DNA of 52,961 nt, from the IMG/VR virus record IMGVR_UViG_3300025769_000070; one strand, written 5' to 3'. A model generated the notes under the pieces. It did no database searches, had not been told where the DNA came from, and saw nothing but the letters and a program-made list of their open reading frames with translations. Below are positions 34,610 through 52,961 of the stretch, one piece after another; the stretch's first letter is position 1, and each line of letters opens with the position of its first letter. The stretch is from a virus. Taxonomy: Duplodnaviria; Heunggongvirae; Uroviricota; Caudoviricetes. The translations under genes were made by a program, and so were the position numbers.

Positions 34610-35006
34610 GCCCTACAAATCTTTTTATGGTGAAATTTATGTCACAGAATCAGCACACTTAGCAGAGCTAATATTTAAGAGACGCTCTGAACTTAACAAT
34701 GAAGGCACATTGCCTAATTTTTTTTGGCGTATTCCAAAGTATAAAAAATCTTTTGGTCTACAAACTATGTACGCCTCTAGATTGTTAAAGACTTATGATA
34801 TTTCTGCTATAATTAAAGGGCTTAATAACAAGGCTGTTAAAAATGTCCTGTCTTTTTCCAATAAAAGGCTGATACCATTTATAGATGAAGCACAAAGTCT
34901 AGTAAAAGACAAAGTCTTTGAAGATAAGACCCAGCAAGATAAGAGTAAATTAGAACCAAAAAAACCTTTTGGTAAGAAAAATCTTTGGAGTATACTGAAT
35001 GAGTAA
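34581..35006 (+). CDS. phage hypothetical protein
   Basis: 141-aa ORF, coupled to recA. Confidence 0.65.
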   Translation: MTQSQPSESKPYKSFYGEIYVTESAHLAELIFKRRSELNNEGTLPNFFWRIPKYKKSFGLQTMYASRLLKTYDISAIIKGLNNKAVKNVLSFSNKRLIPFIDEAQSLVKDKVFEDKTQQDKSKLEPKKPFGKKNLWSILNE

Positions 35007-37074: not shown

Positions 37075-37487
37075 GAGTCATAGGATTTGACAAAAAAATT
37101 TACAATATAAATTTTTCAAAGTCTGCACATAAAAGCTTTAGAGAAAATAAGTCTGCCTATCATAATAAAGCTAGAAAATTAATCTCTGAGATATTTCCAT
37201 TTGAAGTTGTTTATGAAGAAACTACTCTACCGGGATCTAGAACAAGAGCTACTGGTCTTCTTTACGCTGACTTCATTATCCCCAAATTATCTATAATCAT
37301 AGAAGTTCATGGGGAACAACATTATAAATTCAGCAAATTCTTTCATAAAACCAAAAAAGGCTTTCAAGAGCATAAACGTAGAGACTTCAAAAAAATGGAA
37401 TGGTGTTTGTTGAATGATATAACCATGATAGTACTACCCTTTGATAAGGAAGAAGAATGGGAGAGTCTACTGAAAAACTGGAAGTAG
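37071..37487 (+). CDS. PD-(D/E)XK endonuclease (DUF559/Vsr-like)
   Basis: LYADFIIP, IIEVHGEQHY, DFKKMEWC. Confidence 0.8.
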   Translation: MRVIGFDKKIYNINFSKSAHKSFRENKSAYHNKARKLISEIFPFEVVYEETTLPGSRTRATGLLYADFIIPKLSIIIEVHGEQHYKFSKFFHKTKKGFQEHKRRDFKKMEWCLLNDITMIVLPFDKEEEWESLLKNWK

Positions 37488-41176: not shown

Positions 41177-42028
41177 ATGACAACAATTGTAGCGTTGGCA
41201 GGAGCTAAGGTTTCGGGAAAGTCTACTACGGTAAATTATCTACACGGTTACGAAATGAAACGTCATGGGTTTATTAAACACTTCGATATTTCTCCAGAGG
41301 GGAAGTTGATAGTTAATGCTATTTATAGAGACGAAGACAATAGACCTTTCGAATCTGCTGGTATTTTTGATTTAGACCAAAAAAATCAAGAGTTTATAGA
41401 ATATGCATCTAACTCATTTTGGCCGTTTGTTAGGGGCTTTAGTTTTGCAGAACCATTAAAAGAGTTATGTGTAAATCTATTTGGATTAGAACCAGAAAAA
41501 GTATACGGTACTGATGAACAGAAGAACTCACTAACAAAACTTAAATGGGTAGATATGCCAGGTGTTATCATTTATGATAGCGACGATATGTGTGACGAAG
41601 TATATTCTGTACTAGAGGAAGAAGGAATTGCTGAAAACTTTTATTTCAAATATTTACCAAGTGATGAAGAACAGTTCATGACTGGTAGAGAATTCATGCA
41701 ATATCTTGGTACAGACATATTAAGAAAAATATATAGTAAAATCTGGACGGATTATTGTTTAAATAATATCAAGAATACTTCTCCAGATCTAGCCTTAATA
41801 TCTGACTGCCGTTTTGAGAATGAGATTAATGCTATCCAATCAAATGGTGGAAAGGTTATCTATCTAACAAGAAATGGAAAGCCTGGAAGTCACTCAAGCG
41901 AACAGGCTGGTTCTTACATAGAACTTTATGATGCAATAATCGATAATTCCAATATGACAATTACTGAACAGAATGAAGCTGTTAAAGAGAAATTGTGCGA
42001 ATGGGGAATTTTACCTAGAAGTCTTTAA
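41177..42028 (+). CDS. deoxynucleoside monophosphate kinase
   Basis: GAKVSGKST, FAEPLKE, REFMQYLGT, ISDCRFENE. Confidence 0.85.
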   Translation: MTTIVALAGAKVSGKSTTVNYLHGYEMKRHGFIKHFDISPEGKLIVNAIYRDEDNRPFESAGIFDLDQKNQEFIEYASNSFWPFVRGFSFAEPLKELCVNLFGLEPEKVYGTDEQKNSLTKLKWVDMPGVIIYDSDDMCDEVYSVLEEEGIAENFYFKYLPSDEEQFMTGREFMQYLGTDILRKIYSKIWTDYCLNNIKNTSPDLALISDCRFENEINAIQSNGGKVIYLTRNGKPGSHSSEQAGSYIELYDAIIDNSNMTITEQNEAVKEKLCEWGILPRSL

Positions 42029-42039
42029 GAAAGCTAAAT

Positions 42040-43092
42040 ATGCTAGTCTGCTATCACCGTAGTTCCTCAATCGGAACACTTAGTTTCTGTGAACAAAAAT
42101 ATTTCTTAACTTATAATTTAGGAATGAAGGATAAGCAGAATCTTAAAGCTACTATGGGAACAATAGTACATAAGTGTATGGAGACGTTGGGAAATATTGT
42201 AATAGCCAAACGAGAAGGAAAAAGGAAGGTTAAAGACGAAATTTTTAATCATACTTTTAAGCAGCTAGAAGATCTAGAATTTATCAGTAAAATGTGTTAT
42301 GATTACTATTCTAAGCATGTTCCTGAACTGTCTGAAAAATTCACACCAAGGGTGTACCAGCAGTGCCACGATTGGTTTTTGAAGGCTTTGGCCTACAAGA
42401 ATGGCGAAATGGACCCGAGAAACCAGGATATCTTTGCGGTAGAGCAGTTTTTCGATATTGAAATCAAGAAACCTTGGGCGAAATATCGATATGATGTTGA
42501 CGGAGAGATTATAGAAGGAAATCTTTCGATTAAGGGAACTGTTGACGTTATAGTAAAACATGACGAAAATTACTTTCAAATCCTCGATTTTAAAACTGGA
42601 AAACGAATAGATTGGGCTACTGGTGAAATAAAGACGCAAGAAAAGCTGGAAAAAGATGTTCAGCTTCTTTTATATTATTATGCTCTTAAGAACACATTTC
42701 CTGATTATGAATTTTATGTTTCGATTTATTACATAAATGACTCAAAGATTGACGGAGTTGATGTGCCTGGTGGATTGTTTGATATCTGTTTTGATGAGTC
42801 AGACTATGAAAAAGCCGAAAATATACTTAGACAAAAGTTCGAATACATAAAGTCAGTTAGACAGCCTAGACTATTGTCTGATGATAATACTCATTGGAAA
42901 TGTCAATATCTGTGCAAATTTTCTGAAGAATGGGATGATTCTGGGAAGTCCACTTGCCAATTCATGCGAGACGAGGTAAAATCCAAGGGGCTATTAGATG
43001 TCGTGGCTGAATATGGAGATATTTCAAAAATATCAAAATATGGCTCAGGCGGGGGGGTATTGTCAGAAGAAGATAAAAAAGGAGATGTTTAG
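42040..43092 (+). CDS. PD-(D/E)XK RecB/Cas4-like exonuclease
   Basis: N-terminal CEQKY, GTIVH, KGTVDV, ILDFKTG, QLLLYY, C-terminal CQYLC...C. Confidence 0.85.
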   Translation: MLVCYHRSSSIGTLSFCEQKYFLTYNLGMKDKQNLKATMGTIVHKCMETLGNIVIAKREGKRKVKDEIFNHTFKQLEDLEFISKMCYDYYSKHVPELSEKFTPRVYQQCHDWFLKALAYKNGEMDPRNQDIFAVEQFFDIEIKKPWAKYRYDVDGEIIEGNLSIKGTVDVIVKHDENYFQILDFKTGKRIDWATGEIKTQEKLEKDVQLLLYYYALKNTFPDYEFYVSIYYINDSKIDGVDVPGGLFDICFDESDYEKAENILRQKFEYIKSVRQPRLLSDDNTHWKCQYLCKFSEEWDDSGKSTCQFMRDEVKSKGLLDVVAEYGDISKISKYGSGGGVLSEEDKKGDV

Positions 43093-43209
43093 TGGATGTA
43101 GATAGAATAATATTAAACATTGAAATTAATTTATATAAGTCTTTAGTAAAACAATATGGTTTTGCTTTAGCTGTTTATTCTGACAATGCTTTTGACTGGG
43201 GGATAATAA

Positions 43210-44655
43210 ATGAGACAATTGAAAGATCAGAATACAAAATGGTTTCCAACTAGAGTAACTTCACATTACTCACTATTACAGTCAACATTAACACCTAAAG
43301 TTTTAGTATCTACTGCTAAATCTTTTGGGTATAATTCTGTAGCACTTACAGATTACGCATCTGTTTCAGGTGCTGTTCAATTTATAAAGGCTTGTAAAAA
43401 GGAAGAGATCAAAGGGATTATCGGATGCGAGATCCCCGTAGAAAATTATGGAGGAACTATAATTGTTCTTTGCAAGAATAAAGAAGCATGGGTTAAGCTA
43501 TTAAAAATTGTTTCTATATGCAATAAGCATGAGGGATTGATATTCCCGTCAGAATCTCTGTCTATTATAGAAGGGGATTTTTTTGTTATTGACGGATATA
43601 TTGGAAGCCGATTATTTTATCATATTGTTGAAGACCCAGCATGTATTCATAAGGCTGAGACTGAAGAAGAAGCAGTCTCTTGTCTAGATAATACAAACCA
43701 GGATTTAGTTATTCAGAAGATTAATGACTACATTAATTTATTTGGGGAAAACTATTTCTTAGAGCTTAATAGAATCAATGGAAAAGAGTTCCCATCTTCT
43801 AACGCAGTGTCTGATTATCTATCTCAGATTGCTACAGACATGAATTTTTCTAACTTGGTTGCTGGTTGCCCAATTAATTACGCCAAGCCTGAAGACGCGG
43901 TAGACCATCGTCTTTTACTATCATCTAAGATGAAGGTGACCAGTAGTAATGCGGAGAAGGGGCTACTTAAAGAAGATTTTTACAAATTTACAAAATTCTT
44001 CAAGAGTAACCTTTATTGTTTTCCAGACCAAGAGAATATAAAAAAACTCTATGAACCTAATCTGATTGAAAATGTGGGCAAGATTGATGAACAATGTGAG
44101 TCCTATGATATTCTTTCTGCCCCACTATTACCAGTGTTTGATTGTCCCGGTGGTTTAAGCCAGATCGAATACCTTAAACAGCTATGCCGTGAGGGTTGGA
44201 AAAACAAATTAATACCACAAGGTGTTGTAAAAACAGAAGAGAAGAGTATTGAGTATAGAGATAGAGTATTAAGCGAACTTAAAATCATTGAAGAAGCTAA
44301 TCTTGCTGGCTACTTTCTTATCGTAGCAGACTATGTAAATAAATTCAGGGATAATGGACGATTAATCGGTCCTGGGAGAGGGTGTTTCTTACCAGATACA
44401 AGAATCAAGATGGATGATGGAATCTATACCCCCATTGCTTCAATTGAAATTGGAGACAAGGTTATAGATGCTTATGGAAAGCCTCAAGAGGTATATGACA
44501 AACTAGAATATGATGTAGATGAAGACATTATTGAGTTAGAATTTGAAAATGGAAAAATTGTCAGATGTACTCAAGATCATAAATTTTTAACGAATAACAG
44601 AGGTTGGGTAGAAGCTAAAGATCTAAATAATGAAGACGATGTGGTCGAGGTATAA
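43210..44655 (+). CDS. dnaE: DNA polymerase III alpha (DnaE) fragment 1: PHP domain plus split-intein N-part
   Basis: SHYSLL, ALTD, GIIGCE, EL.II....LAGYFLIVAD, GPGRG then CFLPD. Confidence 0.9.
   Translation: MRQLKDQNTKWFPTRVTSHYSLLQSTLTPKVLVSTAKSFGYNSVALTDYASVSGAVQFIKACKKEEIKGIIGCEIPVENYGGTIIVLCKNKEAWVKLLKIVSICNKHEGLIFPSESLSIIEGDFFVIDGYIGSRLFYHIVEDPACIHKAETEEEAVSCLDNTNQDLVIQKINDYINLFGENYFLELNRINGKEFPSSNAVSDYLSQIATDMNFSNLVAGCPINYAKPEDAVDHRLLLSSKMKVTSSNAEKGLLKEDFYKFTKFFKSNLYCFPDQENIKKLYEPNLIENVGKIDEQCESYDILSAPLLPVFDCPGGLSQIEYLKQLCREGWKNKLIPQGVVKTEEKSIEYRDRVLSELKIIEEANLAGYFLIVADYVNKFRDNGRLIGPGRGCFLPDTRIKMDDGIYTPIASIEIGDKVIDAYGKPQEVYDKLEYDVDEDIIELEFENGKIVRCTQDHKFLTNNRGWVEAKDLNNEDDVVEV
44383..44652 (+). 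mobile_element. split intein N-fragment 1 (90 aa)
   Basis: CFLPDT (block A) and CTQDHKF (block B), then stop; acidic tail. Confidence 0.9.
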
Positions 44656-44694
44656 AAAGAACCTCGATTGGGACTTTTGGGTGTATAGGATGAT

Positions 44695-44910
44695 ATGATG
44701 AGAACTAAGAGACTATATCAAATAATTTACAGGCATGAACAGTATATTCAACCTATGTCTAAATTAATTAGTAGTTGTTTTATTACACTCTACAGAGAAG
44801 ATGTAGTTAGTCTAAATTTGCCTAGATTAATTAGGACTCATTCATGGCTCAGTCTTGTCTCTTGTGAAGACGAGTATTTTTTCATAGAAGAAGTCAAATA
44901 TGAAGAGTGA
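44695..44910 (+). CDS. hypothetical protein between the split-intein halves
   Basis: 71-aa ORF. Confidence 0.35.
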   Translation: MMRTKRLYQIIYRHEQYIQPMSKLISSCFITLYREDVVSLNLPRLIRTHSWLSLVSCEDEYFFIEEVKYEE

Positions 44911-45734
44911 TTATGAAAACCATTACATTGAAAGAGTTAAAAGACTTAAATTATAGTCCAAAAGGTGTCTCTAATTACAAATTAATAGAAGGAGAATGTT
45001 CCAAGTGTAATCAAAATTTTGAGTATTCAAATGTAAAAAAATTTTTACGAAATAGAAAATCAAATCAAAACAAAGACGAATGGGATACTTGTGCTAAGTG
45101 CTATCTGAAACTTAAGACTATTGAAGATTCAAAATGGATGGAAGCTAACAGACAGGCTCAATTAATAGCTCAAAATAGACCAGAACAAAAGAAAAGAAAC
45201 GCAGAAGGCGTTTCTAAAAGTTGGGACCAAGAGAGAAAATCAAAAGCTTCAGATTTTTTAAAAAAAAGATGGGAAAACGAAGAGGGGTTTGCTGAGAAGG
45301 CTCTTAAAAATTTCGAATGGACTCAAACAAATGATGAGAGGCATAATGAGATTCTAAAAAGGTCTCTAGGAGCTGGTGGGCTTAAAGGAGAGTATCAGGG
45401 GATCAGATACGATAGTGCTGTTGAATTATCTTTTTTATTGTGGTGTGAGAATAAAAATATTCCCATAAAAAGATATGATTTAGCTCCTATCTCTTATTTG
45501 GCAGAAGATGGTAAAACAAGATTGTATTTTCCAGATTTCATTATTTACCACAATCAGATTATAGAGATCAAAGGTTTAGGGGTGTATTATCAAAAAAATT
45601 ATCAGAGAAATTTGTTAAAAATAGACGCTGCACAAAAATTCTGTCAAAATTATAAAGTAATATTTAGTGACGATGAGTGCTTGAAGAAATTCTATAAAAA
45701 AGCTAGAAAGTTACATCATGAAACTAAAAAATAA
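44907..45734 (+). CDS. free-standing putative homing endonuclease (TnsA-N-like PD-(D/E)XK)
   Basis: YDSAVEL, YFPDFII, IEIKG; N-terminal CxxC...CxxC; lies between IntN and IntC. Confidence 0.72.
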   Translation: MIMKTITLKELKDLNYSPKGVSNYKLIEGECSKCNQNFEYSNVKKFLRNRKSNQNKDEWDTCAKCYLKLKTIEDSKWMEANRQAQLIAQNRPEQKKRNAEGVSKSWDQERKSKASDFLKKRWENEEGFAEKALKNFEWTQTNDERHNEILKRSLGAGGLKGEYQGIRYDSAVELSFLLWCENKNIPIKRYDLAPISYLAEDGKTRLYFPDFIIYHNQIIEIKGLGVYYQKNYQRNLLKIDAAQKFCQNYKVIFSDDECLKKFYKKARKLHHETKK

Positions 45735-45822
45735 GAAACTGACTAAACATACTGGTAAAGTATATGATCTTTCTGTGACAAATTCTCACACGTATAATGT
45801 TGAAAGCTTAGGTGTTCATAAT
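45718..45822 (+). mobile_element. split intein C-fragment 1 (35 aa)
   Basis: Basic N-terminus, VYDLSV (block F), HTY...VHN (block G), Ser at +1. Confidence 0.9.
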
Positions 45823-46506
45823 TCAGCCGCAGGCAGTTTAGTCTCTTATTTAGTTGGTATTACTCTGATTGACCCTATTCCTTACGGCCTTCTATTTTCA
45901 AGATTTTATAACTCAGCACGTATTGGCTCATTACCCGATATTGATGTTGACTTCCCACCAGATTTGCGTGAAGAGGTCATTAATTATCTTAGAGAAAAAT
46001 ATGGTCACGATAAAGTTTGTCAGATGGTGACTTTTGGACGGTTGCAAGGTCGTGGAGCACTAAAAGAAGTATTAAGGATTAATGAGTCATGTTCGTTCGA
46101 AGAGATGAACATGATTACGAACAAGATACCACTAGAGTCACTTCTTTCTGATAAGCTGGAAGAAATGGAAAAACCTTCAGTAATTAAATGGTGCTTAGAA
46201 AATGACCCAGACGCTCTAAGAGAGTATTGCGTAGAAGTTGATGGTGAGCTTTCTGGTGATTATGCAAAACAATTTGAACAAGCATTAAGAATTGAGGGGA
46301 TATTTAAATCTCAAGGCAAACATGCTGCTGGAGTGGTTGTTTCATCTGTTCCATTAGAACAGTTCTGCCCAATGGTTAAACCAACCAAGGGGGAAGATTC
46401 TGTAGCTGGATTTGAAATGAGCGATTTAGAAGCGGCTGGCGGTGTTAAGCTCGACATATTGGGTGTAAATTTATTACGTAAAATAGAAATGACATGTCAT
46501 GTGTGA
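45718..46506 (+). CDS. dnaE: DnaE fragment 2: split-intein C-part plus catalytic palm
   Basis: 35-aa IntC ending VHN|S, then SAAGSLVSY, PDIDVDF, KHAAGVV, KLDILG. Confidence 0.92.
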   Translation: MKLKNKKLTKHTGKVYDLSVTNSHTYNVESLGVHNSAAGSLVSYLVGITLIDPIPYGLLFSRFYNSARIGSLPDIDVDFPPDLREEVINYLREKYGHDKVCQMVTFGRLQGRGALKEVLRINESCSFEEMNMITNKIPLESLLSDKLEEMEKPSVIKWCLENDPDALREYCVEVDGELSGDYAKQFEQALRIEGIFKSQGKHAAGVVVSSVPLEQFCPMVKPTKGEDSVAGFEMSDLEAAGGVKLDILGVNLLRKIEMTCHV

Positions 46507-46661
46507 TGTAGAAAAAGTAATGGATGATATTTTTTTTGATATATGGTACGATTCGGCTGATCAATTAGATAATGAAGAATTAAGGAAAATAGAAAATATT
46601 ATTTACGATAATATTAACAGCCTAAATATAATTATGCAAAACTTTTATTTTAGAGAATTTT

Positions 46662-47342
46662 ATGATATATAATACATATTGTGTGTACGATTTAGAGACT
46701 ACATCACCCTCACCAAAAACTACACAAATAGTGCAAATTGCTGCCAAGATGGTCAATAGCAGAACTTTAAGTATAATTCCGGGGTCAGAATTTCAGTCAT
46801 TAGTTCAACCTAGTTTTGATCCAGAATTTTGTAAGCTTCATAGATTAGATTTACTTCAGCCGGGGGCTATAGCAGTACATGGTAAAACTGAAGCAATGCT
46901 TAGAACGGCACCCACACTAAAAGCCGTTTGGTCAAATTTCTGTGAGTATGTGAAGTCTTACAATTACAAAGGGACTAATTGGACAGCACCAATTCGAGTT
47001 GGATATAATAATAAAGGGTTCGATGATATCATTGTTGAAAGGGTTATGTGTGACTCACCTTGGGAATATGGACCATCTTCTAAAGATAAAAGCAGACAGG
47101 ATTTATTTAACAAATACTCATCAATTGACGTATATGATATTATGTTACTGATGTTTGAAAATGATAAATCTGTTAATAAGTTAGGGGCCGATGCTTTAGT
47201 ACGTGGACATATGGGTTATTCGAAAAAGAATGCTCACGATGCTATGGCTGACGTAGATATGACGGCGGAATTATTCTGTACGGTACAGCGTTCTATTCGG
47301 GCATTTGCAAAGACTAAGAATTTTAAAGGAATGTTTAACTAG
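46662..47342 (+). CDS. DEDDh 3'-5' exonuclease (DnaQ/epsilon-like)
   Basis: YDLETT, GYNNKGFD, HDAMADV. Confidence 0.88.
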   Translation: MIYNTYCVYDLETTSPSPKTTQIVQIAAKMVNSRTLSIIPGSEFQSLVQPSFDPEFCKLHRLDLLQPGAIAVHGKTEAMLRTAPTLKAVWSNFCEYVKSYNYKGTNWTAPIRVGYNNKGFDDIIVERVMCDSPWEYGPSSKDKSRQDLFNKYSSIDVYDIMLLMFENDKSVNKLGADALVRGHMGYSKKNAHDAMADVDMTAELFCTVQRSIRAFAKTKNFKGMFN

Positions 47343-47361
47343 TTATAAAAAGAAAGTAATA

Positions 47362-48069
47362 ATGGAAATTCCCCAACTTTTTCGTGAGTCACGTTATGGT
47401 ATGCCAAGTGCAGACCAAATTTTACCTAATAGGAACTATTTAATTGGATACTCCTATTTATTCCGGCAGCCTCGCTGGGCGATGCAGGTAATCGATGGAT
47501 CGGCATCTGATGTATCTGTAGACCGTCAGGACTGCTTCAGACCTGATTTAAGAATCCCCGAAACCTTCAGAGCTACATTATCTGACTATGCGGGTTCTGG
47601 TTACGATAGGGGGCATCTTGTTCCATCTGCCGATAGCAACGAGACACGTCTAGAAAACAGCGAAACATTCTTACTCTCTAACATGAGTCCTCAAGCCCCA
47701 GACATGAATCGTCGATCTTGGAGAATTCTAGAGTCAGCAGTTAGAAAGATTGCACAAAAACCTGAAGTAGTAGAGGTCTATGCTATTAGCGGACCTGTTT
47801 TTGATTTATCAAAACCATTTACTAAAATAGGTGATGATGTTATTGTCCCGCATGAGTTTTTCAAGACTGTTTTAGTTGAAGATAATAAAGGTAAGATTGA
47901 TTTTTGTTCATTCCTTTTACCTAATGAAAAAACAAATACTACTTATAAAGACCACGTTGTTTCTGTTAAATATTTAGAGTTTAGAACCGGACTGCTTTTA
48001 TGGGATCGTCTAAAAGGGAGTTCAATAGAAAAGGCAAAAACAAAGAAAACTATCCGTAAAGGAATATAA
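47362..48069 (+). CDS. DNA/RNA non-specific endonuclease (NucA/EndoG family)
   Basis: YDRGHL, SNMSPQ, SGPVF, VPHEFFK; start moved to ATG 47362. Confidence 0.9.
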   Translation: MEIPQLFRESRYGMPSADQILPNRNYLIGYSYLFRQPRWAMQVIDGSASDVSVDRQDCFRPDLRIPETFRATLSDYAGSGYDRGHLVPSADSNETRLENSETFLLSNMSPQAPDMNRRSWRILESAVRKIAQKPEVVEVYAISGPVFDLSKPFTKIGDDVIVPHEFFKTVLVEDNKGKIDFCSFLLPNEKTNTTYKDHVVSVKYLEFRTGLLLWDRLKGSSIEKAKTKKTIRKGI

Positions 48070-48085
48070 AAGAAAGATTCAATAA

Positions 48086-49681
48086 GTGAATAATCTAGAT
48101 ATCACTAAAATACCTTTAGACGATCAAAAAACTTGGGACTTAATTTGCTCTGGTAACACTAAAGGTGTGTTTCAGCTAGAAACTAACTTAGGTAAGCATT
48201 GGTGTAAAGAGTGTAAGCCAAGAAGCATAGAAGAGTTATCAGATGTTATTAGTGCTATTCGGCCTGGATGTATTTCCGGAGATTCGTTAATAACAATTAA
48301 AAATAGAACTTATGATACAAGATCTAATACATACGCTAAGAAGACAATCAGGGAATTATGCAATAATGCACATAAAGTAACCAGTCTGTTATCTCTTGAT
48401 ACTTCGTCTAAGAAAATTATAGACAACGGCATTGAAGATATTTTTTATAGTGGTGAGAAAGAATGTTTTGAGGTTTTAATAACAAATTATTCAAAGGGGA
48501 AGAAAAGACTACAGGTTAAGAAAAAATGGCATGATCTGGAGTGTACGGCAGAGCATAAAATGTTGACATCTGATTTAAATTGGGTTTCTTTAAAGGATTT
48601 GAAACCTGGTCAAAGAATAGCATGTCTGAAAAAAGCTAGTAACAAGACTAGAATGTCTAATACTATTAGTAATAGACATGTAAAAGATGGGCCTAGAATG
48701 CCTAATGTAGATGGTACTAGATATTTTGCTGAAATATGTTATAAAAACTATATAGAAGAATGTGTTATATGTGATTGGGATGAAACAAGTTTAGATACAC
48801 ATCATATTGAAGGAAATAGACATACCAACAATAAACCAGAAAATTTAGCTTACTTATGCCCTAATTGTCATAGAATGCATAATATGTCTTTAATAAGTAC
48901 AGATGAAATACTGACAAAAAGAAAGGAAAAAGAACTGCCAAAATTTGAAGGTGTTGAATGGGTCACTTATTTAGGTAAGAAATCTGTTGGGGTAAAAGAC
49001 ACTTATGATATTACTATGAAGTCTCCTAACAATAATTTTATAGCTGGTAATTTTATTGTACACAATTCATTAAAGGCAAAACAAGATGGAAAGTCCATGA
49101 CTCAGCACTATGCTGATAGAAAATCTAGTAAAGAAGAAATGGACAGTCTATACGGACCAATTGACCATATAGTCGCTAGTACTCAGTCAATTATCCTCTA
49201 TCAAGAGCAGTCAATGAAGATTGCTCAGGTGATGGCGGGCTTCTCGGAACAACAATCAGATACTCTGAGAAAATCAATCGGTAAAAAAAATGCGTCCCTG
49301 ATGGCAGAGGTAAAGGTTCAATTTTTAGAAGGATGTAAGCAGCAAGGACACTCAAAAGAGGACTCCGAGCGAATCTTTGAGATTATCGAAAAAAGTTCTA
49401 GATATAGTTTTAATAAATGTCTTGCCTTGGATACATTAGTTGAACTGGAAAACGGCGATATGATTACAATTGAAGATGTATCTATTGGAGATAAGGTAAA
49501 AACTCCGGATGGTTATGCCGTCGTAAAGAATAAATACAATAATGGCATCCAAGACGTGTTCCGAGTTAATATTGGAGGCAAAGAAATCAAGTGTACTATT
49601 ACCCATAAATTTTTAAGTAAAGACGGGAAAATTCTCCCATTATGGTCTTTTCTATTTACCGGACAACCCATACATGAATGA
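48086..49681 (+). CDS. dnaE: DnaE fragment 3 with an HNH cis-intein and a C-terminal split-intein N-part
   Basis: GVFQLE, AIRPG|intein|SL, ILYQEQ.M, LRKSIGKK, YSFNK then CLALD. Confidence 0.92.
   Translation: MNNLDITKIPLDDQKTWDLICSGNTKGVFQLETNLGKHWCKECKPRSIEELSDVISAIRPGCISGDSLITIKNRTYDTRSNTYAKKTIRELCNNAHKVTSLLSLDTSSKKIIDNGIEDIFYSGEKECFEVLITNYSKGKKRLQVKKKWHDLECTAEHKMLTSDLNWVSLKDLKPGQRIACLKKASNKTRMSNTISNRHVKDGPRMPNVDGTRYFAEICYKNYIEECVICDWDETSLDTHHIEGNRHTNNKPENLAYLCPNCHRMHNMSLISTDEILTKRKEKELPKFEGVEWVTYLGKKSVGVKDTYDITMKSPNNNFIAGNFIVHNSLKAKQDGKSMTQHYADRKSSKEEMDSLYGPIDHIVASTQSIILYQEQSMKIAQVMAGFSEQQSDTLRKSIGKKNASLMAEVKVQFLEGCKQQGHSKEDSERIFEIIEKSSRYSFNKCLALDTLVELENGDMITIEDVSIGDKVKTPDGYAVVKNKYNNGIQDVFRVNIGGKEIKCTITHKFLSKDGKILPLWSFLFTGQPIHE
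48269..49066 (+). mobile_element. cis intein (266 aa) with HNH endonuclease
   Basis: Starts CISGDS, CTAEH in block B, ends IVHN|S. Internal CVIC...THHIEGNRHTNNKPENLAYLCPNCH. Confidence 0.9.
49418..49678 (+). mobile_element. split intein N-fragment 2 (87 aa); partner not in the window
   Basis: CLALDT (block A), IKCTITHKF (block B), then stop. Confidence 0.87.
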
Positions 49682-49840
49682 ATTTATAGAAGATCAATAT
49701 TGGAAAGATTTTAATAATGGAAAGAATCTAGATAAGTACGGAATAAAAACGATAAAAGTTATCATGTTAGATAGGTGGCAGTCACAAGACCCATCCTTTT
49801 TTGCATTCAAAAATAGAGAAGAATTATTAAGAGTTGGTAA

Positions 49841-50275
49841 ATGACTAATAATGCTTATTCAAAGATCAATAATGTTGACCCTAGCCACATAATGGAATGG
49901 TTCTACTCCAGTGTCTGTGAGGCTGGTGGTGATGGTGCAGCGGTCATCTGTTGTGGAAACCCAAAAGAAACCTCTGAATACTTCATTCAATGGTGGAAGA
50001 AGCGATATTTACCACAAATGAAGAAGAACGGATATAAAAAAGATGAATTCTGGCATCCCGTAGAAGAATATACTGGACAAAATGGAGAACTTATATTAAA
50101 CTATCATGATGGCAACGAGAACTTTATGTTCTGTGATCAGGTTGTTGATCTTGGTCATGGTGATGTTAGTTTTATTGTCGAATCGGACTGTAAGACTCTT
50201 GATGGAAAATTTACATGCCAGAAAGTTATAAAGTTAGATATGTACGATAATTGGAATAAATGGGGGGAAAATTAG
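49841..50275 (+). CDS. hypothetical protein
   Basis: 144-aa ORF. Confidence 0.6.
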   Translation: MTNNAYSKINNVDPSHIMEWFYSSVCEAGGDGAAVICCGNPKETSEYFIQWWKKRYLPQMKKNGYKKDEFWHPVEEYTGQNGELILNYHDGNENFMFCDQVVDLGHGDVSFIVESDCKTLDGKFTCQKVIKLDMYDNWNKWGEN

Positions 50276-50372
50276 AGCTAGAGTAACTAATAGCATCAAC
50301 ATGAGTAACTACATACTATAAAAATTGAACTTGACATAAGCCGTACTAAACGTCTTTTTTTGGATTTAGATT

Positions 50373-50909
50373 ATGAATATTTTTGTACTTTCTTATGACC
50401 CCGTAGAAGCAGCCCAGTCGCAAGTCAACCGTCATAATATAAAGATGATTTTGGAAAGTGCCCAGCTACTTTGCACTGCTCACCATATGTGTCCAAAATA
50501 CGAACTGCCTATCAAGTTCTATCGTAAAACACACCACAATCACCCGTGTGCCATATGGACTCGTGAGTCGTCTGATAATTATAAATGGCTCTGCAAGCAC
50601 GCTATCGCTCTATGTGATGAATATACTTACCGTTACGATAAGACACACGCATCACGAGGAATTATTGAGTGGTGTTACGATCATATTCCTGACTTACCAG
50701 ATATTGGTCCAACCTCTGTTAGACTTGCTATGCCGGATGAATACAAAAATGATGATCCGGTAGAATCTTATAGAAATTATTATTACTATGATAAAGGTAA
50801 AAATATTCAATGCGAGTGGAAACGTAGAAATCCACCAGACTGGTGGAACAGAATGTTAGCACTTGACGAACTTACAAAACAAGCACAAGAATTAGATATG
50901 GGATATTGA
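50373..50909 (+). CDS. pyrimidine-dimer DNA glycosylase (DenV/endonuclease V family)
   Basis: MNIFVL, H.IKMILESAQLL, HHNHPC..W, DPVESYRNYY. Confidence 0.85.
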   Translation: MNIFVLSYDPVEAAQSQVNRHNIKMILESAQLLCTAHHMCPKYELPIKFYRKTHHNHPCAIWTRESSDNYKWLCKHAIALCDEYTYRYDKTHASRGIIEWCYDHIPDLPDIGPTSVRLAMPDEYKNDDPVESYRNYYYYDKGKNIQCEWKRRNPPDWWNRMLALDELTKQAQELDMGY

Positions 50910-51073
50910 CATTTAGGCTCTATTCGTGAAATAATCCGCCTTTCGCAAGATTGTCCTTTGAAAGCCTACTCTTACGTATCAGGAAAAATAAATGACTGAC
51001 AAGTCAGATTTTATTAATACAGGTATGTCATACAACAAGTTAGTAGAAGAACTAAAAAGAGAATTTAACCTAA

Positions 51074-51328
51074 GTGATTGGTCCGCAAGACAGATCATTG
51101 CTGTTGTATGTAACTGGCTGGAGGAAAGTAATACTAATGACTGATTGGAGAGATATTGTAGAATTTAATAGAGACTGCAATAAATGGGAAGTAATTCTCA
51201 AGGGGTATTGTTGTACCACAGAAGAACAGAAAGTTATTTCAGACTGTTTCATAAGAATGAGAGATAGATTTGAAACAACACGGCTGCGAATGGCGGAACT
51301 TAATGCTACATTAGGAGTTGATGAATGA
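51074..51328 (+). CDS. hypothetical protein; true start may be downstream
   Basis: Ends GVDE in the repeated junction. Confidence 0.5.
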   Translation: MIGPQDRSLLLYVTGWRKVILMTDWRDIVEFNRDCNKWEVILKGYCCTTEEQKVISDCFIRMRDRFETTRLRMAELNATLGVDE

Positions 51329-51597
51329 GTTCTGACGAACATAAAAACAAAGCTGACGCATATGTAACGTGCCGTGATGGAAAGATTAGATACTTTACCG
51401 CAGATGATGGTGAAGTTTTTCATTATAAGGGGCGGAAATATACTTATCTATTGTGGGATGAGACTGAAGGCAGGGGACTTATTACTATGTTTGTTTATGG
51501 AGATAAGTACCTTTTGGCCCCTAGTCATATGCAACCTGTTCTTGTTGAGGCAAAAACTTGGGCGGGTCGTTGGAATTGGGAAGGGGTTGATAAATGA
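51325..51597 (+). CDS. hypothetical protein (MSSDEHK...GVDK)
   Basis: Bounded by junction repeats. Confidence 0.65.
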   Translation: MSSDEHKNKADAYVTCRDGKIRYFTADDGEVFHYKGRKYTYLLWDETEGRGLITMFVYGDKYLLAPSHMQPVLVEAKTWAGRWNWEGVDK

Positions 51598-51821
51598 GTT
51601 CTGACGAACATAAGACAAAAAGAATTGTAGATATAAATGGTGACATTATTTGTGAACCAGAACATTATCATGAATGCCTCAAATGGGGGCGGGAAATGAT
51701 TGATAAGATGGAAGAGGATAATGTTGATAGATCTGACATGCTGGTAATCATAGAAAGATTAGCATTTGAAATTCGTTTTACTTTGACTATGTTGAAGGAC
51801 CGCGAAGGAGTTGATAAATGA
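51594..51821 (+). CDS. hypothetical protein (MSSDEHK...GVDK)
   Basis: Bounded by junction repeats. Confidence 0.65.
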   Translation: MSSDEHKTKRIVDINGDIICEPEHYHECLKWGREMIDKMEEDNVDRSDMLVIIERLAFEIRFTLTMLKDREGVDK

Positions 51822-52009
51822 GTTCTGAAGAACTAAAAGAGAAAACATTCTATCTTGTAGATACCCCATTCATTAAAGGTAAATTCCAGTATATTGGTGA
51901 AGTGAATTTGGGAAATCGGAAATATCTGTTTCAGCATTTAGCGATTGATATGTATCTAACAGAAGATGAAATTATGTGGTATGTAAACGAGGATAGATCA
52001 GATGACTGA
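51818..52009 (+). CDS. hypothetical protein (MSSEELK...)
   Basis: Starts in junction repeat 3. Confidence 0.6.
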   Translation: MSSEELKEKTFYLVDTPFIKGKFQYIGEVNLGNRKYLFQHLAIDMYLTEDEIMWYVNEDRSDD

Positions 52010-52202
52010 ACTTTGCTTGGGTCTTCTTACATTTGCTGTATTATTCCCCATTTATATGATAATTAGGTCACGGTCAAATAATCCACCTAAAAACTGGTGG
52101 CAGTATCATACTAGGGACTGTGGAACGAAGTATCGTGGGTGTTCACCTGATTGTCCTAAAGATATTTATGAACGAACTGGTGAATGGAGGGGTGACAAAT
52201 GA
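52002..52202 (+). CDS. small single-TM protein
   Basis: N-terminal hydrophobic helix; C-x6-C-x3-C. Confidence 0.6.
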   Translation: MTELCLGLLTFAVLFPIYMIIRSRSNNPPKNWWQYHTRDCGTKYRGCSPDCPKDIYERTGEWRGDK

Positions 52203-52633
52203 GAGCGAGGGTAACTGACAGCATAAGCGAAGCAATTCAATGGTTCTGCGAAGACGAAATTGAAATTGGCGATCCTTTGTATGGAAGCTGCGACGACAAT
52301 CCTATGATGGCCCGAAGTTTTAAAAATAGAAAACCGGGAGATAAATTATTAGGCGTCTCTACCGTATATGTGGTAAATATTGATTTAACAAAGCACCCAA
52401 GTCATGCCCGTTCAGATGTAGTAAATTTAGGAAATAAGATCAGAATCTTACAAGATGGTGAAATTGTTATCCATAGGAAATATGATAAAATACCCACAGG
52501 GCAACCAATATACGTCTCCAAAAAGGGTAAGATCACTTGGAGAAAACAATGTGAACATATAGGCTGGGCATCATCCAATCAAGATAAAGATGGGTTTTTG
52601 AAAGTTAGGGTAAAGATCAATGAGAGATATTAA
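52199..52633 (+). CDS. hypothetical protein
   Basis: 144-aa ORF, ATGA overlap. Confidence 0.55.
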   Translation: MRARVTDSISEAIQWFCEDEIEIGDPLYGSCDDNPMMARSFKNRKPGDKLLGVSTVYVVNIDLTKHPSHARSDVVNLGNKIRILQDGEIVIHRKYDKIPTGQPIYVSKKGKITWRKQCEHIGWASSNQDKDGFLKVRVKINERY

Positions 52634-52961
52634 ATTTCGGGTTTGGCACAAAAAAGAAAACCGATGGCTTGATCCGTGGGCAGAGGAAGATCCTATTCTT
52701 TCTTTAAAGGACTACGGAAAAGGTTGCGAGGTATTTCTTTATGACAGAAAAAGTAAAGAACACAGTAATATCAACTGCCAAATGGATGATGTGGTCATCC
52801 AACAATACACTGGCCTTAAAGATAGAAACGGTGTTGAAATTTATGAGGGTGATATTGTAGAAAGACGACGAGAAAGAGGTCTTGTTGACTTTAATAGCAA
52901 AAATTATGCCCAGATACCCGGCTGGAACCTTCTACTGTATCAGTATGTCCCATACCAAAAA
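52620..52961 (+). CDS. YopX-family phage protein, partial
   Basis: Manual translation MRDIKFRVW...QYTGLKDRNGVEIYEGDIV; runs off the window. Confidence 0.85.
   Translation, partial: MRDIKFRVWHKKENRWLDPWAEEDPILSLKDYGKGCEVFLYDRKSKEHSNINCQMDDVVIQQYTGLKDRNGVEIYEGDIVERRRERGLVDFNSKNYAQIPGWNLLLYQYVPYQK

Follow-up and report, generated by a model that had tools for sequence, protein, structure and literature searches.

The replicase DnaE, the sole recognisable DNA polymerase of an uncultured marine/estuarine phage, is encoded by four separate genes (Table 1). According to the reading we favour, with a probability of roughly 0.85, the enzyme is made from four translated pieces through two split inteins, a cis-intein and a non-covalent joint. 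Each of these devices is already known singly; we found no earlier account in the literature of an enzyme that unites them all, and the combination is apparently new. The analysed window is the whole 52,961-nt stretch of IMG/VR record IMGVR_UViG_3300025769_000070.

Table 1. Features of the fragmented dnaE locus (window positions unless a contig is named)
Feature	Coordinates	Strand	Content
Fragment 1	43210-44655	+	PHP and PF07733 positions 1-65, then 90-aa IntN after GRG|C
Extein E1 (391 aa)	43210-44382	+	PHP domain and first 65 palm positions (PF07733), ending GPGRG
IntN-1 (90 aa plus stop)	44383-44655	+	Cys1 (CFLPDT), block B CTQDH; Hint/Intein_splicing matches
7-bp hairpin (TCGAGGT / ACCTCGA)	44645-44667	+	Spans fragment 1 stop codon and TATAAAAA motif
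Endonuclease cassette, 1015 nt	44669-45683	+	Missing from L019 (blastn, window vs L019)
orf71	44695-44910	+	Inside endonuclease cassette
Putative homing endonuclease, free-standing (273 aa from ATG)	44913-45734	+	Pfam TnsA-like N, 28.7 bits
Fragment 2	45718-46506	+	35-aa IntC ending HN|S, then PF07733 positions 66-260
IntC-1 (35 aa)	45718-45822	+	Block F VYDLSV..H, ending GVHN before Ser+1
Extein E2 (227 aa)	45823-46506	+	Rest of palm, and thumb; PF07733 positions 66-260, E 1.1e-48
orf57	46499-46672	+	Small ORF
DnaQ-like 3'-5' exonuclease gene (226 aa)	46662-47342	+	Pfam RNase_T E 3.1e-13
DNA/RNA non-specific endonuclease gene	47362-48069	+	Pfam Endonuclease_NS E 1.3e-41; 235 aa taken from gene call in other assemblies
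Fragment 3	48086-49681	+	266-aa intein (RPG|C ... HN|S); ends with 87-aa IntN after FNK|C
Extein E3a (61 aa)	48086-48268	+	Start of fingers, ending AIRPG; PF17657 match in two stretches
Cis-splicing intein (266 aa)	48269-49066	+	Cys1, block B CTAEH, ending IVHN before Ser+1
Extein E3b (117 aa)	49067-49417	+	Remaining fingers to YSFNK; PF17657 positions 81-166
IntN-2 (87 aa plus stop)	49418-49681	+	Cys1 (CLALDT), block B CTITH, conserved tail PLWSFLFTG
Accessory island, first 3.3 kb	49674-52961	+	Runs over contig end, between IntN-2 and IntC-2
Fragment 4	G000:C1:1661-2776 (= L003:1234-2349; outside the window)	+	36-aa IntC-2 ending TSN|S, then E4, 335 aa with HHH_6 match

Anatomy of the four-gene polymerase

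The first-pass annotation had described fragments 1 to 3 with a pair of split inteins, an HNH-type cis-intein and a break lacking an intein, and had called for a search for a fourth gene. The three fragments stand at their coordinates and junctions, every intein part and the break are present, and the fourth gene, comprising IntC-2 and the DnaE C-terminus, was located at the start of the same contig. The independent assembly L109 bridges the contig ends: it matches the contig's final 1366 nt (100%) and its initial 4000 nt (99.98%), leaving a 110-nt gap. On the resulting circular map, fragment 4 lies downstream of IntN-2 at a distance of 5.06 kb.

In silico removal of the three inteins gave a DnaE of 1131 residues, and the three restored junctions agree with the consensus of about 95 intein-free relatives. 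Junction 1, restored as GRG|SAA, has this form in 89 of 94 related loci; the cis-intein junction reads RPG|[C/T/S]L in relatives, and FNK|SH occurs in 87 of 90. Reading frames and catalytic motifs are intact in all fragments, the catalytic Asp motifs PDIDVDF and KLDILG aligning to Taq and E. coli alpha (PDB 3e0d, 5fku); in this alignment, E2 corresponds to E. coli alpha 364-565. E1 carries the Pfam PHP domain (E 4.5e-20), and the PF07733 profile runs unbroken across split 1 at positions 65|66. About 94 relatives have E1 and E2 uninterrupted, and relatives have E3a directly joined to E3b. The phage's own DnaB, primase and exonuclease genes adjoin dnaE, and a search of the phage genome turned up no polymerase of family A or B. 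A host polymerase could in principle also serve the phage.

Split intein 1 separates G from S in the GRG|S motif. The best solved relative of IntN-1 (net charge −13) is the NrdJ-1 intein 8ubs (E 1.4e-5), and IntC-1, with a basic arm of +6 in its first 14 aa, is 97%, 80% and 66% identical to its counterparts in L019, L123 and L125, respectively. The endonuclease cassette starts directly after the 7-bp hairpin, as seen from the sequence and the L019 junction (fold of 44630-44720, z −2.5). It contains most of the endonuclease gene together with orf71, which yielded no homologues and may be no more than a leader. A terminator-like hairpin (44854-44874) lies just upstream of the endonuclease start, an alternative GTG at 44907 would give 275 aa, and the 3' end of the gene overlaps the start of IntC-1 by 17 nt. 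In the putative homing endonuclease, a Zn-ribbon and a helical region precede a C-terminal PD-(D/E)xK nuclease domain, and C29, C32, C60, S168, E171, P207, D208 and K220 are invariant among 510 family representatives. Its predicted model (pLDDT 91) matched TnsA 1t0f (Z 7.5), Vsr (Z 5.8) and I-Bth0305I (Z 5.7). L125 and L127 have homologues at the corresponding position.

The cis-intein is located in the fingers at RPG|S (Intein_splicing, E 1.7e-11) and carries an HNH-like insert at about 48761-48898, whose HNH match (E 7.5e-4) narrowly misses the Pfam cut-off. In L021-L024 this site is occupied by alleles with 32-48% identity.

Split intein 2 cuts at FNK|S. IntN-2 (net charge −2) has the gp41-1 intein 6qaz as its best solved relative (E 0.011) and is identical to its counterpart in L124 (100%), with 71% identity to that of L122, which has Ser1, and 64% to that of L123. 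The full 5.06-kb island between the halves holds about 17 small plus-strand ORFs, and no nuclease family was found among those tested. The predicted IntN-2/IntC-2 complex scored 0.57, against 0.01 for the best of three controls, with at least 90% of contacts agreeing between runs and partner pLDDT of at least 62. Of 78 solved complexes 51 reached the pass mark, as did 2 of 108 mismatched pairs; the passes with a score of 0.60 or lower comprise just 5 of the 78 solved complexes and all 4 mismatches that passed. The prediction lends weak support to the pairing, and since similar split-intein complexes have already been solved, the pass may reflect memorised structures.

An old clade-wide break and younger mobile inteins

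The break between fragments 2 and 3, as first annotated, is real; it is also old and clade-wide rather than peculiar to this phage. In about 97 related phage loci, DnaE is likewise encoded by two ORFs, an N-half of about 615 aa (PHP, palm and thumb) and a C-half of about 535 aa (fingers to C-terminus), with the DnaQ-like exonuclease gene between them in nearly all. The cut falls in the linker joining palm and fingers, around E. coli alpha residues 571-576, the C-half beginning near 576. E2 ends where the N-half of relatives stops, and fragment 3 begins 1.58 kb farther on; the break shows no Hint signature. Among the protein-database entries listed, the 120 best-matching N-half relatives are without exception short forms of about 470-640 aa. 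The exonuclease matches phrog_192, 'DNA polymerase exonuclease subunit' (E 8.8e-24). The slot of orf57 holds a conserved ~75-aa ORF in 81 of 96 relatives, to which orf57 shows no detectable relatedness, and the Endonuclease_NS gene between the exonuclease gene and the C-half occurs only in this sublineage (L004, L122, L123, L124).

The three inteins are later mobile invaders, younger than the break. They are present as originally described, with the refinement that related phages are polymorphic for their presence. For intein 1 and the cis-intein, exact empty sites exist in near-identical phages: compared with L004, the window carries an exact 1439-nt intein-1 element, and compared with L124, the cis-intein is an exact 798-nt insertion. 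Intein 1 is absent from L004, L124 and L122. L019 has retained it with the 1015 nt of the cassette deleted, and in L123 the endonuclease is reduced to a remnant. A distant DnaE, L125, has the intein-1/endonuclease element with an IntN 71% identical in a context where extein E1 is 30% identical. All three inteins were added to a two-gene dnaE, and the endonuclease gene between the halves of split intein 1 makes a classic 'fractured gene'.

Split intein 2 is fixed in the sublineage, where it is split and dislocated throughout despite about 25% extein divergence, an accessory-gene island of 3.7-5 kb separating the halves. In the studied phage the drift of the halves has reached 5.06 kb, and the small accessory genes lie between them. 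A DUF559/Vsr-like endonuclease type was found at the intein-2 site in L024 and L025. Judged by substitution patterns, purifying selection is shown to act on the intein halves: pN for the four halves was 0.05-0.23 against saturated pS, and dN/dS, where estimable, was 0.065-0.16 (0.065 for IntN-1 vs L123).

Proposed maturation route and alternative readings

As all intein parts and the intein-less break are present and the fourth gene exists, the route proposed by the first-pass annotation, with two trans-splicing reactions, one cis-splicing reaction and non-covalent assembly, is supported as the simplest reading. Trans-splicing of split intein 1 would produce a 618-aa N-half, while cis-splicing together with trans-splicing of split intein 2 would produce a 513-aa C-half. 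The two halves would presumably then assemble without a covalent bond, as conservation and precedent in other phage enzymes suggest.

The inteins probably splice, and it is unlikely that intein 2, or both split inteins, are splicing-dead, their halves serving as a tight non-covalent dimerisation module for three or four associating chains. Aeh1 NrdA is an unspliced split phage enzyme whose fragments are held by interaction domains derived from a mobile element (PMC3045599), and intein 2 has Ser in place of His before its terminal Asn. However, inteins without a penultimate His still splice, the Ssp DnaE intein being an example (reference CR84). Every allele of intein 2, down to the distant L024 and L025, retains Cys1 (Ser1 in L122), TxxH, the terminal Asn and Ser+1, and intein 1 retains Cys1 and the other three in the window, L123, L125 and L127. 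Moreover, FNK|SH is cut inside a conserved active-site-proximal motif, which a retained bulky intein would disturb.

A gene broken into four and burdened with three selfish elements looks eroded, but a decaying dnaE in a phage dependent on the host replicase is very improbable. The intact frames and motifs, the strong purifying selection on exteins as well as inteins, the adjoining replication genes and the lack of another polymerase family found in the genome all speak against it. Furthermore, an identical fragment 4 protein occurs in 28 blocks of the assembly collection (23 contigs read), and the fragment 3 protein on 7 contigs.

Healing of the break by an intron, RNA trans-splicing, readthrough or frameshifting instead of a protein-level joint is likewise very improbable. 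In some relatives, such as L008, the N-half stop adjoins the exonuclease ATG in frame and the exonuclease stop overlaps the C-half start, and L007 has an insertion elsewhere in the gene that may be intron-like. Against this, the self-splicing introns considered by the first-pass annotation did not appear, as an Rfam search of 42000-52961 returned no family match even at E 1. The interval is filled by complete, separately started genes (the conserved exonuclease and here also the endonuclease), the pieces are in different frames, and about 97 loci share the ORF boundaries of the two halves.

Sequencing or assembly errors, or a strain chimera, can be practically dismissed: although this is a metagenomic contig from a polymorphic population in which related contigs often end in this region, the 'stops' are entire inserted elements with Hint motifs, not point changes, and they recur in independent assemblies. 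The same fragment 3 protein is found in at least five of these from different samples, three of which (L117-L119) have the same genes from fragment 1 through fragment 3, L117 being 100% identical over 5819 nt, and L109 tiles the remaining contig at 99.98-100% identity. Recurrence in five assemblies and exact intein-free alleles in near-identical phages indicate that the arrangement is neither chance nor assembly error.

In the favoured splicing route, the two split inteins would not be expected to cross-react. IntN-1 and IntN-2 are 26% identical, IntC-1 and IntC-2 18%, and the first 14 residues carry +6 in IntC-1 of four alleles vs 0 or +1 in IntC-2. The polybasic IntC-1 arm may pair with an acidic IntN-1 strand; IntC-2 has no basic arm, and in this strain the corresponding strand of IntN-2 is slightly basic. 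The argument from charge holds only in part, as this strand varies (+3 in the window, −1 in L123, −2 in L122) and L123 also has intein 1. Low identity, differing charge patterns and differing nearest solved relatives (NrdJ-1 vs gp41-1) fit orthogonality. NrdJ-1 and gp41-1 were previously used together as orthogonal inteins (PMC7090010), and Dassa et al. 2009 (PMC2677866) remarked that these intein types have opposite charge polarity.

Relation to other split enzymes

In cyanobacteria, protein trans-splicing assembles DnaE from the products of separate genes, the halves of the split intein (Ssp/Npu) being encoded apart. These dnaE genes are cellular, not phage, and have one split intein per gene; they are not known to have a free-standing endonuclease or an intein-less break. 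The cyanobacterial site lies before CFNK with Cys+1, four residues upstream of intein 2 (FNK|S, Ser+1). The split dnaE of Trichodesmium erythraeum reportedly has multiple inteins (Liu and Yang 2003, J Biol Chem 278:26315), with further cis-inteins in the same gene.

The break resembles those in other phage replication enzymes that inserted DNA cuts into two genes and whose pieces come together unligated, as the DnaE halves presumably do. The gp43 polymerase is encoded as 43A and 43B in Aeromonas phages 25 and 44RR, the pieces co-purifying and being active, and Aeh1 NrdA is split by mobE (Edgell et al. 2010, PMC2988022). Unlike these, the inserted gene here is a conserved dnaQ-like exonuclease rather than a homing endonuclease, and a large clade has the split throughout, not just single phages; gp43 is a family B polymerase, whereas DnaE belongs to family C.

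The four-gene dnaE is a case of the 'fractured genes' described in environmental phage-like DNA, including the loci DnaE-1 to -3 (Dassa et al. 2009, PMC2677866). Shared features are a phage replication gene as host, a marine/estuarine source, the halves of intein 1 on adjacent genes with a free-standing endonuclease gene between, an endonuclease 3' end overlapping the IntC start, and hairpins upstream of the endonuclease. The steps of that model are all found here: invasion (II), endonuclease loss (III, L019) and dislocation (IV, intein 2). In contrast to those short read-assemblies, with one split each and part of an extra intein at one locus, here the whole gene is seen, and it combines an intein-less break and a cis-intein with two unlike split inteins. 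The free-standing endonuclease shows a classic PD...ExK motif, and its best structural match is TnsA.

The phage inteins fall in the size class of the fast metagenomic split inteins gp41-1, NrdJ-1 and IMPDH-1 (IntN 87-90 aa, IntC 35-36 aa) and share Cys1 and Ser+1 with them; the likeness to NrdJ-1 and gp41-1 is weak, as the E-values given above indicate, and host protein and insertion sites differ. Two such split inteins coexist naturally here in one polypeptide system.

Architecture of the fragmented DnaE

The window corresponds to bases 89178-142138 of a 142,148-base IMG/VR virus contig classed as linear and 94% complete. The first-pass annotation had described a DnaE replicase broken into at least four genes, with two split inteins and one cis-intein, and this observation was confirmed. 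Fragments 1, 2 and 3 and their proposed junctions were borne out by motifs and Pfam domains, every gene of the dnaE region lying on the + strand, and the anticipated fourth fragment was found by an HHH_6 search of the phage's own genome. The DnaE domains present are PHP, PF07733 and PF17657 according to Pfam, together with HHH_6 in fragment 4. PDIDVDF and KLDILG align to the catalytic motifs of Taq alpha, and the catalytic Asp motifs are intact. At 335 aa, E4, the extein piece of fragment 4, is long enough for a C-terminal OB fold and a clamp-binding motif. Without the three inteins the pieces add up to 1131 aa, a usual length for DnaE, and the consensus of the clade is recovered at all three predicted splice junctions (a slash marks the splice point): GRG/SAA in 89 of 94 loci, RPG/[C/T]L, and FNK/SH in 87 of 90.

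Positions of the DnaE fragments and associated features (window coordinates unless marked as contig)
Feature	Position	Strand	Description
RecA-like gene	34999-37074		691 aa
RecA intein	about 35200-36216		339 aa; LAGLIDADG domain
138-aa ORF	37071-37487		overlaps recA end
Fragment 1	43210-44655	+	481 aa; PHP domain and Pfam PF07733 positions 1-65, then 90-aa Hint N-part after GPGRG
Cys1 of intein 1	44383	+	block A
Intein-1 endonuclease gene	44913-45734	+	17-nt overlap with IntC-1 (start 45718)
Fragment 2	45718-46506	+	262 aa; first 35 aa end in GVHN, then SAAGS... with PF07733 positions 66-260
orf57	46499-46672	+	57 aa
Endonuclease_NS gene	47362-48069	+	DNA/RNA non-specific, E 1.3e-41
Fragment 3	48086-49681	+	531 aa; fingers domain in two stretches, 266-aa intein between, 87-aa Hint N-part after YSFNK
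Accessory island	49674-52961 and contig G000:C1:1-1660		between the halves of intein 2
Fragment 4	contig 1661-2776		371-aa ORF; 36-aa IntC (block F DHIFYANG, end PTSN), then SHAVSYAY...

The two halves of intein 1, IntN-1 at GRG/C and IntC-1 at HN/S, held up as annotated. Block A (GRG/CFLPDT) directly follows the N-extein, block B reads CTQDH and the element ends in GVHN/S; this Cys1/TxxH/Asn/+1 set is kept in the related contigs L123, L125 and L127. The PF07733 profile is gapless across the split because fragment 2 resumes it at the position after the last one in fragment 1, and an empty site is present in the relative L004. The cis-intein of fragment 3, running from RPG/C to IVHN/S, is an exact 798-nt insertion relative to L124, whose flanking exteins E3a and E3b are 100% and 99% identical to those of the window, and its site is occupied by alleles in the distant loci L021-L024. 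It carries an HNH-like insert: the motif HH..N..N..CxxCH is visible, and the Pfam scores for HNH (20.0 bits, cut-off 21.4) and HNH_2 (18.7, cut-off 21) stayed below threshold. Intein 2 shows FNK/CLALDT, a CTITH block B and PTSN/S, with Ser rather than His as the penultimate residue in all alleles; joining its exteins restores FNK/SHA, the consensus at 81 of 90 intein-free loci.

In fragment 4, IntC-2 is followed by residues that carry on the conserved FNK-SH motif as expected. Both contig ends are bridged by L109, an independent JGI assembly that is 100% identical to the final 1366 nt of the contig and 99.98% identical to its initial 4000 nt, with 110 nt between them. The map is therefore circular, and the start of fragment 4 lies 5060 nt downstream of the stop of fragment 3. 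Small + strand ORFs, ~17 in all, fill the interval between IntN-2 and IntC-2; two encode YopX-family proteins and one a phrog_624 DNA-binding protein, and no nuclease family or homing endonuclease was detected with Pfam or PHROGs in 14 of these ~17 ORFs. This island is hypervariable among otherwise near-identical phages (variants L101, L102, L110, L123 and L124), with differing ORF sets upstream of an identical fragment 4; many contigs end there, and it bears duplicated YopX genes. A scan of viral contigs found no relatives of fragment 4. Its carriers were identified by exact-protein look-up in the assembly collection: the protein has index entries in 28 blocks, and 23 contigs encoding it were read.

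Two refuting explanations of the breaks had been raised. Self-splicing introns joining the fragments at the RNA level were rejected on an Rfam scan of 42000-52961, which returned no RNA family even at E up to 1. Sequencing or assembly errors are contradicted by an identical fragment 3 protein in five other assemblies from different samples, three of which (L117-L119) share the series fragment 1, small ORF, endonuclease gene, fragment 2, orf57, exonuclease gene, non-specific endonuclease gene and fragment 3, L117 being 100% identical to the contig across 5819 nt. In a promoter and terminator scan, the promoter-like sites (41 versus 31 ± 5 in shuffles) were not informative, and a single hairpin, upstream of the endonuclease gene, was retained. 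The proposed maturation, in which an active polymerase would require two trans-splicing reactions, one cis-splicing reaction and non-covalent assembly of two halves, is well supported by anatomy and comparative data.

The intein-less break in related phages

Viral-contig scans yielded ~97 related loci. In nearly all of them, tblastn placed E1 continuous with E2, followed by a dnaQ-like exonuclease gene and then by E3a-E3b-E4 without interruption. ORF maps of the relatives gave a separate N-half (PHP and palm, ~610-660 aa), exonuclease (~230-240 aa) and C-half (fingers to C-terminus, ~535 aa), with stops between them and frequent start/stop overlaps. The best 120 relatives of the N-half in a large protein database, which come from JGI, ENA, Logan and Tara metagenomes, were all short PHP and palm proteins of ~470-640 aa. 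The N-half aligns to residues 7-563 of E. coli alpha. The C-half starts at about alpha residue 576, its residue 17 being aligned with residue 592; the cut therefore falls within the linker between palm and fingers, and every domain is retained. No cultured relative in INPHARED was more than about 40% identical to the palm or 30% identical to the C-half.

The absence of an intein between fragments 2 and 3, noted at the outset, was upheld: no intein remnant was detected, fragment 2 ends where the intein-free N-half of L004 ends (391 + 227 = 618 aa), and fragment 3 begins where the C-half of L124 begins. Judged from these comparisons, the intein-less break is old and clade-wide; the first-pass interpretation is supported and is refined on the origin of the break. 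Phage enzymes working as unligated pieces have precedents: 43A and 43B, the two parts of gp43, co-purify and are active, and NrdA of Aeh1 is fully functional in its split form (PMC2988022).

Several further genes adjoin the break. The Endonuclease_NS gene, located between the exonuclease gene and the C-half, was seen only in the window, L004 and L122-L124 and is absent from the other ~90 relatives. Between the N-half and the exonuclease gene, 81 of 96 loci (relatives L005-L100) carry a conserved ~75-aa ORF (motif YQVHS ... EA..KFLE) that may be an unrecognised small subunit. The window has orf57 in the same slot; hhalign gave a probability under 1% for homology, and the two were treated as unrelated. 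In L007 (8999-10001), the N-half is cut again by about 1 kb just before the catalytic PDIDVDF motif. This insertion contains a free-standing double-motif LAGLIDADG ORF (230 aa), and because no Hint motifs are visible on either side, it would be either an intron or an intein-less fracture.

Alleles and endonucleases of the inteins

Related phages carried intein 1 in several states. L004 (97-98% nucleotide identity) lacks exactly 1439 nt, the whole intein-1 element, and the removal restores the host protein; intein 1 is also absent from L124 and L122. In L019, IntN-1 and IntC-1 are kept and 1015 nt (44669-45683) are missing, with the last ~35 nt of the endonuclease ORF left to supply the start region of IntC-1, a state that looks like endonuclease loss. 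In L123, only endonuclease residues 153-275 remain. The endonuclease cassette starts directly after a 7-bp hairpin enclosing the fragment 1 stop codon, and a second one sits immediately upstream of where the endonuclease starts; hairpins of this kind are described by Dassa et al. (PMC2677866). The position of the endonuclease gene between the intein-1 halves, overlapping IntC-1, is likewise that of the Dassa 2009 fractured gene.

The intein-1 endonuclease gave a Pfam TnsA-like N match above the cut-off and belongs to a family of 510 representatives. Across 50 members C29, C32 and C60 (Zn-ribbon), S168, E171, P207, D208 and K220 are invariant and E218 is nearly so; these residues form the PD...ExK motif of a PD-(D/E)xK nuclease. 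In an AlphaFold model (mean pLDDT 91), the C-terminal domain was closest to TnsA 1t0f (116 residues aligned, rmsd 3.0), ahead of Vsr 1cw0 (Z 5.8) and I-Bth0305I 3r3p (Z 5.7), an EDxHD/Vsr-like homing endonuclease; the Z values, at 7.5 for TnsA, are middling, so only the fold class is claimed. A PDB sequence search returned chance-level matches only, and Foldseek against the PDB found nothing at E <= 0.001, its weak matches all being PD-(D/E)xK nucleases. Two homologues (53% and 41% identical) lie between IntN and IntC at the same GRG/S site in other phages (L125 and L127), whose palm and fingers are unsplit. The shared site of this family in three divergent phage lineages marks it as a putative homing endonuclease. 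The IntN of L125 is 71% identical to IntN-1 and its extein E1 only 30%, the signature of a horizontally spreading intein-endonuclease unit. In L127 (2390-3004), the stretch of DnaE preceding the intein-1 site is just 204 aa long and has no PHP domain, which may be missing or encoded elsewhere.

Intein 2 is present, split and dislocated in every sublineage member seen (L124, L122 and L123). IntN-2 is 100% identical to that of the window in L124 and 71% in L122; L123 has 64% for IntN and 69% for IntC, with halves 3.7 kb apart. In the Tara allele (L122:13784), IntN-2 begins with Ser (FNK/SLTLDT) instead of Cys, a natural nucleophile swap within one intein lineage. The distant L024 and L025 have a split intein at the same FNK/S site with halves 1 kb apart, separated by a gene for a ~300-aa DUF559/Vsr-like endonuclease overlapping the IntC start. 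The endonuclease between the halves, a feature of the Dassa 2009 fractured gene, is found in these alleles; none was detected for intein 2 of this genome among the 14 island ORFs scanned. The DUF559-type enzyme of L024 and the intein-1 endonuclease showed no similarity by BLASTP and were treated as different families. The inteins are younger than the break and mobile, and their allele states correspond to steps II, III and IV in the fractured-gene model of Dassa et al. (PMC2677866). For intein biology, these population snapshots cover every stage of the fractured-gene life cycle: empty site, intein with endonuclease, decayed endonuclease, deleted endonuclease and dislocated halves.

A fourth intein was observed in the P-loop of the RecA-like gene (GKAKTGK/A ... 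VTHN/TST). It may be non-canonical and class 3-like because it starts with Ala rather than Cys or Ser, has Trp after block B and Cys in block F, and carries Thr before HN. The recA of L123 is an intein-free allele (349 aa, 84% identical). The 138-aa ORF beside recA has a Vsr/DUF559-like motif (ADFII ... IIEVHGEQH) and no Pfam match, and may be a free-standing homing endonuclease adjoining the intein-bearing gene.

Specificity of the split inteins and its implications

Joining of IntN-1 to IntC-2 would delete the palm, as had been argued, because E2 holds both catalytic Asp motifs. Identity between the two inteins is 26% for the N halves and 18% for the C halves. The first 14 residues of IntC-1 carry +6 in all four alleles, facing a strand of -4 to -5 in IntN-1. 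Those of IntC-2, which is net acidic, carry 0 or +1, and the matching IntN-2 strand is +3 in the window, -1 in L123 and -2 in L122. A simple opposite-charge basis of orthogonality is weakened by the mildly acidic L122 and L123 alleles, and charge therefore accounts at most for part of the specificity. Among solved inteins, IntN-1 is closest to NrdJ-1 (E 1.4e-5) and IntN-2 to gp41-1 (E 0.011), two inteins that have served together as an orthogonal pair (PMC7090010); electrostatic "capture" between intein halves and an inverted polarity of gp41-1 have been described (PMC11766414 and PMC2677866).

Complex prediction weakly supported the pairing of IntN-2 with IntC-2, with a score of 0.57 (best control 0.01), in a range (<= 0.60) that is wrong more often than right unless the pairing is already likely. 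The runs agreed in at least 90% of contacts, with a partner pLDDT of at least 62. Of 78 solved complexes 51 reached the pass mark, as did 2 of 108 mismatched pairs; at scores <= 0.60, those reaching it were only 5 of the 78 and all 4 of the passing mismatches. Similar split-intein complexes have been solved, and the predictor's memory of them may account for the pass.

Compared with L123 or L122, pS was 0.5-0.8 (saturated) and pN 0.05-0.23 in exteins and intein halves alike; where estimable, dN/dS was 0.065 for IntN-1, 0.12 for IntC-1, 0.09 for IntN-2 and 0.16 for IntC-2. No family A or B polymerase was found in the phage genome, and DnaB, primase and exonuclease are encoded beside dnaE. We consider it unlikely, at roughly one chance in five, that the split inteins are an evolved, mutually orthogonal pair in one enzyme and that piecewise maturation is more than tolerated parasitism. 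Under such a scheme, a resident dislocated intein 2 without the usual acid/base zipper could allow an invading zipper-type intein 1 to coexist. Fragment 4 heads a different gene block 5 kb off, past the hypervariable island, which could make completion of the replicase dependent on expression of that block, and the island, lying within an essential gene, might be kept as a protected landing site.

Genes with several inteins are known, and a split cyanobacterial dnaE with multiple inteins was reportedly described by Liu and Yang in 2003. Dassa et al. (2009) already reported three fractured DnaE loci from ocean metagenomes, whose integration points differ mutually and from the cyanobacterial site, and one of which also contains part of a further intein (PMC2677866). 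Here, two different natural split inteins would have to work alongside each other on a single protein and not cross-react, and no earlier report of two in one protein was found in the literature searched, coverage of which was incomplete and leaves novelty unproven. For protein engineering, they are a candidate pair of orthogonal inteins, matching gp41-1/NrdJ-1 in size class and each having Cys1 and Ser+1, and the natural allele series could be used to study partner specificity.

The same literature, with the same incomplete coverage, contained no report of a two-gene DnaE with an intervening exonuclease gene, and the clade-wide operon of N-half, exonuclease and C-half would represent a subunit architecture of C-family replicases not described before. 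Of interest for replication biology, the C-family polymerase of a large, uncultured clade of marine phages is made as two polypeptides cut in the palm/fingers linker. With a proofreading exonuclease gene between the halves, this split replicase poses a testable question of how it assembles and keeps up processivity.
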